IMG/VR virus record: IMGVR_UViG_2531839449_000028
Source: a virus
Lineage: Duplodnaviria; Heunggongvirae; Uroviricota; Caudoviricetes
Length of the DNA stretch: 4,943 nt
Reading direction: 5' to 3' (one strand)
Below are positions 2,141 through 2,587 of this stretch, piece after piece. Both the position numbers and the translations under genes were made by a program. Positions within the stretch are counted from its first letter, which is position 1. Each line of letters opens with the position of its first letter. The notes under the pieces are model-generated. The model had not been told where the DNA came from, did no database searches, and saw only the letters and a list, made by a program, of their open reading frames with translations.

Positions 2141-2587
2141 ATGGCTGAAAATTTAAAGGCAAGAGATGGTAACCGCCTGTATAAGGCGCAATTGCTTTCC
2201 TACTATTATTCACGCCGCGCAGAGTCGGCGATCGGCAAAGGTGCGCGTTTTGTTATCTCTAAGGCGTATTGGTGCAAATCTAGTCTGGTAACTGCTAATG
2301 GTGCAGGAGGCTGGAATATAGCGGACATTCCACTCGATTTTAAATTGAGTGACGCTCAACAGTTTGCCGTGTCCGATCTGATATTATCCAGCGTGGATGG
2401 GATTATCACTATCAATGCAGCCTTCCCTCAAGAAAGAATGCCGGATAACACGCCTTACGACTTTAACACGCTTGTGCTTGTTGATGCTGAGGAACAGGCT
2501 TTTGGTGTGCTTTGCACCCAGCAAGATACCCTCTATAAAGGTAAACGTTACAGTATTCTCATGACAATCGAGCAAGTTGAGGGTTGA
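2141..2587 (+). CDS. Hypothetical 148-aa protein encoded immediately upstream of, and translationally coupled to, the tail-fibre gene
   Basis: AAGGAG at 2125-2130 lies 10 nt before the ATG at 2141. The TGA stop (2585-2587) sits 2 nt before the tail-fibre ATG (2590) and inside the spacer of its RBS. I recognise no motif in the translation (MAENLKARDGNRLYKAQLLSYYYSRRAES...). Confidence 0.65.
   Translation: MAENLKARDGNRLYKAQLLSYYYSRRAESAIGKGARFVISKAYWCKSSLVTANGAGGWNIADIPLDFKLSDAQQFAVSDLILSSVDGIITINAAFPQERMPDNTPYDFNTLVLVDAEEQAFGVLCTQQDTLYKGKRYSILMTIEQVEG

Follow-up and report, generated by a model that had tools for sequence, protein, structure and literature searches.

Which gene lies directly upstream of the tail-fibre gene in the viral DNA of IMG/VR record IMGVR_UViG_2531839449_000028? 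The stretch that was analysed, 4,943 nucleotides (nt) long and referred to here as the window, belongs to a D6-like phage of the P1 family, a plasmid prophage (phage-plasmid) of Escherichia coli. The open reading frame (ORF) in question occupies positions 2141-2587 of the plus strand, begins with an ATG at 2141-2143, ends with a TGA at 2585-2587, and encodes 148 amino acids (aa). In the original prediction, made from the letters of the DNA, it was described as unrecognised and possibly undescribed, with no known motif. By sequence comparison, the ORF is the ortholog of gene R of bacteriophage P1, with which the R-S-U tail-fibre operon begins. Judged from sequence profiles and a structural model, its product looks like a free-standing relative of the domain by which other fibres attach to the baseplate.

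The ORF is an ortholog of P1 gene R

In tblastn searches of phage genomes, the ORF product was 99.3% identical at the amino acid level to orf36 (gp091) of phage D6, which is annotated as "similar to P1 gene R", and 45.5% identical to P1 gpR over residues 13-143 (E=2e-31). Comparable matches were obtained with gpR of P7, SJ46, RCS47, and other punaviruses. A PHROG scan assigned residues 5-147 of the 148 to phrog_2032 (E=1.5e-74), and the Pfam family PF26881, named Phage_P1_tail_fiber_R in the gene tables of related contigs, was recorded on all 32 of the R homologs found in a large-database search, in which only close and moderate relatives were present. Scans of the ORF against local copies of Pfam-A and NCBIfam gave no match because these copies predate both PF26881 and PF26903, the family of the product of the neighbouring gene 16. 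In the copy of the ORF carried by plasmid pVP441, the protein is annotated as WP_000829713.1.

The R family is narrow, being represented by 36 representative clusters among 1.84 billion proteins, and with full-length homologs at 20-82% identity in these clusters the stretch 2141-2587 is, on sequence grounds, clearly coding. The representative search also returned P0061, a repetitive Gram-positive surface protein of 1325 aa, which was dismissed as repeat-driven noise.

The homology searches thus gave a clear match to a characterised family, the outcome that the original prediction had itself named as speaking against its view, and neither the description of the ORF as unrecognised nor the reported lack of a motif holds. 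The gene is already known: its name goes back to 1989, D6 carries an annotation for it, it has Pfam and PHROG families of its own, and near-identical proteins are encoded on dozens of E. coli phage-plasmids. According to the citation in PMC10695390, Guidolin, Zingg and Arber (1989) defined R along with the tail-fibre operon. It had also been stated that no canonical gene is known at this position in P2 or Mu; this stands for those two phages, which have no separate gene there, and fails for P1, whose order 16, R, S, U is matched exactly.

Homology to P1 gpR and to D6 orf36 extends over the full length, and the proteins are similar in size (148 aa vs 144 aa). In both phages, gene 16 and S flank R on one strand, and R has a close stop-start junction with S. 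The D6-type module differs from that of P1 in that R, gp16, and the N-terminus of S have each diverged, all to about 42-53%. Apart from this divergence, the upstream promoter box, and the interruption of bplA by an insertion sequence (IS) in the present copy, no substantive difference from P1 gpR and D6 R was found.

R is coupled to the fibre gene and travels with it

Direct reading of the sequence bears out both the predicted position of the ORF and the location of its stop codon within the spacer of the ribosome-binding site of the fibre gene. The start codon of R at 2141 is preceded at a distance of 10 nt by a Shine-Dalgarno sequence, AAGGAG (2125-2130, plus strand), and D6 is annotated with an identical start. 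The fibre gene begins with an ATG at 2590-2592, 2 nt past the R stop codon, and its Shine-Dalgarno sequence, GAGGG (2579-2583, plus strand), lies within the 3' end of R, with the R stop codon inside the 6-nt spacer TTGATT that separates GAGGG from the fibre ATG. In each of the nine loci compared (D6, P1, and relatives), the fibre start lies between -1 and +16 nt from the R stop, and the conservation of this tight gap supports the idea, already expressed in the original prediction, that the two genes are co-expressed.

In the window, gene 16 (1201-2046), R (2141-2587), and S (2590 on) follow one another on one strand, and the same arrangement is found in loci L005-L011. The order bplA-16-R-S-U is common to D6 and P1, is preceded by sit and pmgA, and is followed after U by U', S', and cin on the opposite strand. 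The succession of a gp16-like gene, R, and a long fibre gene is kept in L006, L008/L009, and L010, in which R is only 20-26% identical to the window protein. Some of the relatives carry additional genes between the gp16-like gene and R. These are four small ORFs, one of them NinX-like, in a Xenorhabdus contig (L005, 4715-5977), and, in two other loci (L008, 4813-5697; L009, 3859-4743), a family-2 glycosyltransferase gene on the opposite strand that may be a serotype-converting moron. In all these cases, the insertions separate R from gp16 and leave its junction with the fibre gene uninterrupted; R moves together with the fibre gene. A comparison of gene neighbourhoods, which had been suggested at the outset, therefore places R beside the fibre gene in nine loci, distant relatives included. 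In some relatives, the gp16 homologs are extended to 350-675 aa.

The predicted fold of R and its relation to PF12571

An AlphaFold2 model of R, obtained with a 20-sequence alignment, reached a predicted local distance difference test score (pLDDT) of 88.2 and a predicted template modelling score (pTM) of 0.84, and it predicts a beta-sandwich with a single helix at residues 20-30. When the model was compared by Foldseek with BFVD, 37 matches were obtained at E<=1e-3 (best 2.9e-6, with about 140 aligned columns), and almost all of these were long tail-collar fibre proteins or tail-fibre N-terminal-domain proteins. Among them was the Goslar fibre, the N-terminus of which matches residues 1-141 of P2 gpH, and residues 1-151 of P2 gpH correspond to PF12571 (DUF3751; E=3.2e-57). 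In work on the retargeting of pyocins, the N-terminal part of the fibre has been termed the 'baseplate attachment region'. It has been proposed that the DUF3751 domain of P2 and pyocin fibres contacts the baseplate (PMC6363177).

For the profile comparison, an alignment of 34 R-family sequences was set against a PF12571 profile of 14 diverse domains, for which 13 diverse tblastn matches were used after the relatives of the P2 gpH N-domain had proved to be 96-100% identical. Alignment with hhalign gave a score of 30.8 (P=3.1e-4) over 81 columns, pairing R 63-146 with P2 H 43-132. This score is about 10 standard deviations above the 60 column-shuffled controls (11.7 +/- 1.9, maximum 18.8), and reversed controls scored 16-20. 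The core shared by R and PF12571 reads '...I/V-P-x(3-4)-F-x-x-L-x-L-x-D-x-x-G-x-x-I/A-A-V'. By profile-profile and fold comparison, R thus appears to be remotely homologous to PF12571, although it is not architecturally a member of the family and at best works like this domain. The link between R and PF12571 is the only fresh element of our analysis, and it leaves the classification unchanged.

With P2 gpH, phiCTX, and the R-pyocin protein PA0620, R shares the predicted fold and the profile similarity of about 81 residues. In P2, as in P1, the attachment domain is encoded directly after the gene for the baseplate wedge protein BW2 (I then H in P2, 16 then R in P1). P2-type fibres differ in two respects: R is a free-standing protein of 148 aa and not the N-terminus of a fibre, and the S protein encoded downstream of R has an unrelated N-terminal domain of its own of about 170 aa. 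No PF12571 signal was detected in S of the window, either by the Pfam scan or by comparing its N-terminus (residues 1-200) with PF12571, and the same N-terminal segment showed no similarity to the R family. Since the N-terminus of S resembles neither PF12571 nor R, S does not duplicate R.

A fold comparison of the R model with individual structures gave matches to the baseplate hub of HFTV1 (9h4p_BD, score 9.6), a gp7 domain of Klebsiella phage KP1 (9f4a_AY, 7.4), a baseplate protein of phage 812 (9euf_b, 7.2), the fibre-tail-adaptor of phage GP4 (8jou_a, 7.2), a neck protein of phage Sf14 (9c39_K, 6.5), gp139 of phiKZ (9xpg_A, 6.0), and a 334-aa baseplate wedge subunit of KP1 (9f4a_A4, 5.9), which from its size is taken to be a homolog of T4 gp8. 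The phage 812 protein 9euf_b, which forms the arm segments, is a homolog of A511 gp105 (E=2.7e-63) and belongs to Pfam family PF25691 (BW3TFN). The fold predicted for R is one that it has in common with T4 gp8, A511 gp105, and the arm segment of phage 812. The GP4 fibre-tail-adaptor and the immunoglobulin-like collar adaptors of Sf14 and Bas63 differ from R in that they are located at the neck or portal and not at the baseplate, have no sequence relationship to it, and are encoded in another genomic context; the resemblance of R to these proteins is probably generic fold similarity.

The N-terminal parts of PF12571 and of the gp105 family were also aligned. The hhalign alignment comprised 41 columns at 37% identity and showed the motif A-x-A...K-v-x-x-T-x-M-A-I/V-G ... 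P-x-P-D-x-x-x-T-x-L-x-E-V, with a score (17.2, P=0.08) that was not significant against shuffles. This similarity hints that gp105/gp8, PF12571, and gpR may be in one superfamily.

R probably connects the wedge protein gp16 to the fibre S

Whereas orthology, synteny, coupling, and the fold and profile similarities were established here, the essentiality of R and its presence in the virion come from work by others on P1. P1 R is essential according to CRISPR interference and earlier genetics (PMC10695390). It was detected in purified virions by liquid chromatography with tandem mass spectrometry as a protein of 15.9 kDa (3 peptides, 26.3% coverage) and was annotated in the same study as 'baseplate wedge', an ortholog of T4 gp8 by HHpred (PMC9024508). 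A 2025 preprint on the P1 tail and baseplate reported an HHpred match between gpR and A511 gp105, a gp8 ortholog, and, with only blurred density seen at the wedge tip, placed a predicted dimer of R onto gp16 by docking (10.1101/2025.07.21.665459). In the 2026 structure of the P1 baseplate, gp16 is the wedge protein BW2 and weak fibre density is anchored on it, and R is not mentioned (PMC12810830).

The RefSeq and PHROG labels, 'tail tube protein' for the product of gene 16 and 'tail fiber assembly protein' for R, are misleading and have been widely propagated; the solved P1 baseplates show that gp16 is BW2, and P1 R is a virion protein.

We consider it likely that R is a structural connector between the wedge protein gp16 and the fibre S. 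Among the roles listed in the original prediction, that of a fibre adaptor or attachment protein fits best with a P1 virion protein that has a baseplate- or fibre-anchor-like fold and a profile similar to that of PF12571. In the mechanism that we propose, R would be transcribed from a late promoter just upstream as part of an R-S-U transcript and would be translated in tandem with S. An oligomer of R would then bind the flexible C-terminal part of gp16, a T4-gp7-like BW2, and a socket formed by R would hold the N-terminus of the trimeric S fibre, giving a flexible joint that would go unseen by cryo-electron microscopy (cryo-EM). The attachment domain DUF3751/PF12571 is present in cis in the fibres of P2 phages and R-pyocins and would be provided as a separate polypeptide, R, in P1/D6-type phages. 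The contacts between gp16 and R and between R and S are inferred, as is the oligomeric state of R, which may be dimeric, as gp8/gp105 are, or trimeric, as fibre N-domains are.

A more far-reaching form of this proposal is a split fibre in P1/D6-type phages, in which the attachment domain of P2, phiCTX, and R-pyocin fibres has turned into, or has always been, a separate polypeptide, gpR, that docks on gp16 and into which the S trimer plugs via its own distinct N-terminal domain, and in which T4 gp8, A511 gp105, PF12571, and gpR all belong to one beta-sandwich superfamily. We advance it tentatively and give it somewhat less than an even chance of being correct in full. A split fibre with R as a flexible joint would explain why R was missed in the two P1 baseplate maps.

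Several observations weigh against R being such a connector. The hhalign probability of the match between R and PF12571 is only 39%, and the Pfam PF12571 hidden Markov model matched none of the 34 R-family members even at E<=10. Foldseek matches of the R model in the PDB are weak (best E=0.024), and beta-sandwich folds recur widely. Between the R family (34 sequences) and the gp105 family (26 sequences), the hhalign score of 14.1 (P=0.2) falls within the shuffle null of 12.8 +/- 2.3. P1 Gp16 is present in the PDB (9ay5, 9vzk), and a HMMER profile search of PDB sequences found no sequence of the R family. The detection of R in P1 virions is based on three peptides, and two cryo-EM studies of the P1 baseplate did not resolve R. 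In addition, the copy of bplA in the window is cut by an IS, so that particles are possibly no longer made by this copy.

The alternative that survives best is that R is a gp8-like accessory of the wedge, a dimer that stiffens or completes the gp16 arm, with S binding directly to gp16. Like T4 gp8, A511 gp105, and gp118 of phage 812, R is a small stand-alone protein, of the kind found at the baseplate periphery, encoded right after a gp7-like scaffold gene. The order bplA(gp6-like)-16(gp7-like)-R parallels gp103-104-105 of A511 and 6-7-8 of T4, and in A511 the parallel extends over gp103 (J-like), gp104 (scaffold), gp105, and gp106 as counterparts of P1 bplA, 16, R, and S. In phage 812, arm-segment dimers, six per arm, reinforce a gp7-like arm scaffold to which the receptor-binding proteins attach (PMC13433997); these dimers decorate a long scaffold, whereas P1 gp16 is short. 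The anchoring of the fibre on gp16, as placed by the P1 baseplate paper (PMC12810830), would agree with direct binding of S, and the published HHpred links of R to T4 gp8 and A511 gp105 also favour an accessory of this type. At the sequence-profile level, the published gp105/gp8 link was not reproduced with the shallower profiles used here, hhalign of the R family with A511 gp105 alone was likewise not significant, and the Pfam scans gave no match to the gp8/gp105 type. The R profile is significantly closer to PF12571 than to the gp105 family, S has no PF12571 domain of its own, and where insertions part the genes, R stays with the fibre gene and not with gp16. We therefore regard a role as wedge accessory as rather unlikely.

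The original prediction also listed a fibre-specific chaperone encoded upstream of the fibre. R would then be a non-structural protein that helps the N-terminal part of S to fold, to trimerise, or to join the baseplate, and that leaves afterwards. The tight coupling of R to S would suit such a protein, as would its absence from the P1 cryo-EM maps and its small signal of 3 peptides in virion mass spectrometry; nevertheless, P1 R was detected in purified virions. The database label 'tail fiber assembly protein', like its variant 'structural or assembly protein of tail fibers', seems to speak for a chaperone; both labels are automatic or historical and have no assay basis. Searches of Pfam and NCBIfam revealed no homology of R to chaperones of the Tfa, P1 gpU, or P2 gpG type, and its fold and profile are like those of structural docking domains and unlike those of Tfa/gp38/gp57-type chaperones. 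Moreover, the operon already encodes a Tfa-type protein, U, downstream of S: in D6, P1, and pVP441, R is located upstream of S, and the Tfa-type genes U and U' are downstream. A chaperone is for these reasons quite unlikely.

A moron-type cargo gene with no function in the virion, the remaining suggestion, can practically be set aside: the small size of R and the lack of a local Pfam or NCBIfam match would allow it, and against it stand the tail-module synteny kept in distant relatives, the essentiality of the gene in P1, the presence of the protein in virions, its baseplate-like fold, and the retention of R beside truly inserted cargo, the opposite-strand glycosyltransferase of L008/L009.

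A candidate late promoter and a hairpin precede R

Two elements were recognised between gene 16 and R. A G+C-rich hairpin without a T-run is located directly after the gene 16 stop codon (2050-2075, plus strand; -18.1 kcal/mol, z=-4.1). At the equivalent place in P1 (locus L002, 5905-5929), a hairpin of other sequence is found (-21 kcal/mol, z=-4.9); D6-type and P1 DNA thus have the structure in common but not its sequence. The hairpin may separate the baseplate operon from the fibre operon as a terminator or transcript end, or as a processing site.

The second element, at 2080-2102 on the plus strand, is probably a D6-type late promoter serving the R-S-U operon and consists of the 16-nt box GGAAATCACAAACTGA (2080-2095) followed by the -10-like hexamer CATACT (2097-2102). 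The box GGAAATCACAAACTGA occurs a single time in the window, in which 0.01 chance matches are expected. In D6 (L013/L014), the box GGAAATNACAAACTGA is found as an exact copy upstream of R and of lydA, and with one mismatch upstream of mat, two upstream of upfC, and three upstream of prt; each of these copies has a -10-like hexamer 1-2 nt further on. A promoter-type element upstream of R would be a feature shared with P1, in which the Lpa-dependent late promoter LPs is annotated between genes 16 and R, and the candidate box occupies the position of LPs. The sequences differ: the P1 late-promoter box is AAGTTACTT, as opposed to GGAAATNACAAACTGA for the D6 type, and a search of the window with the P1 box AAGTNACTT gave no match. 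The Lpa homolog of D6 probably recognises the D6-type box. A generic scan for sigma-70 promoters and terminators upstream of R yielded nothing convincing, and a terminator-like site that the same scan placed inside the R ORF (2174-2188) was at chance level.

The window derives from a D6-like phage-plasmid with an interrupted tail module

Positions 1201-2900 of the window are 99.1% identical to Escherichia phage D6 by megablast, and positions 895-3500 align to 5695-8300 of the D6 locus L001, in which bplA occupies 4560-5990. The tail module was found in 81 of 5426 complete E. coli genomes and was always plasmid-borne. The segment 900-2900, which includes the R ORF, is 100% identical in four E. 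coli plasmids, among them pVP441.

The first 894 nt of the window (1-894, plus strand) come from an IS1203/IS629-like element of the IS3 family, of which they make up the 3' part. This part contains a partial transposase ORF (156-854), carries rve, HTH_21, and rve_3 domains, and matches the IS1203 copy of plasmid pVP441 with 99.2% identity. Phage DNA begins at 895 inside bplA, a T4 gp6-like baseplate gene, of which only the last 296 nt or so are left (895-1190, plus strand), as seen from the alignment with D6. Because this essential baseplate gene is interrupted by the IS, the prophage copy is probably defective, with its R-S region intact. In related plasmids, the same IS is found in other tail genes: pVP441 carries it in S, and the FWSEC0003 plasmid in gene 16. 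This distribution suggests repeated IS inactivation of the tail module among D6-like phage-plasmids.

The neighbouring genes are readily assigned. Gene 16 (1201-2046, plus strand) encodes a protein of 281 aa that is orthologous to the baseplate wedge protein BW2 of P1 (T4 gp7-like). Its residues 1-238 match the P1 Gp16 chains 9ay5_a/9vzk with E=2.4e-59, and it belongs to PF26903 (Phage_P1_Gp16) and, according to the PHROG scan, to phrog_2015. The tail-fibre gene, an ortholog of S (2590-4943, plus strand), is incomplete and open to the window end (784 codons); it was identified by a PF03406 repeat, matches to many PHROG tail-fibre families, and synteny with S of D6 and P1. A cixR site for Cin inversion lies inside S at 4016-4035 and matches cixR of D6 and P1 at 20 of 20 positions; the C-terminal part of S from there on is therefore within the invertible C segment. 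The fibre gene also contains a 222-bp tandem repeat (3259-3722, 2.1 copies, 79% matches) that encodes shaft segments of about 74 aa and resembles the b1/b2 repeats annotated in P1 S.

Significance

As the result of a genome scan, gene R carries little weight, the gene having long been named and annotated. What interest remains is in the exact place of gpR in the virion, given that two structures of the P1 baseplate, one published and one a preprint, do not resolve R. P1 and P1-like phage-plasmids serve widely as tools for transduction and DNA delivery and also disseminate resistance genes. Rational fibre swapping would benefit from knowing that R is probably what joins fibre to baseplate and is akin to the attachment domain found in P2 and pyocin fibres. 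If true, the split fibre would define the exact interface that has to be kept when S is swapped to engineer the host range of P1 phagemids.

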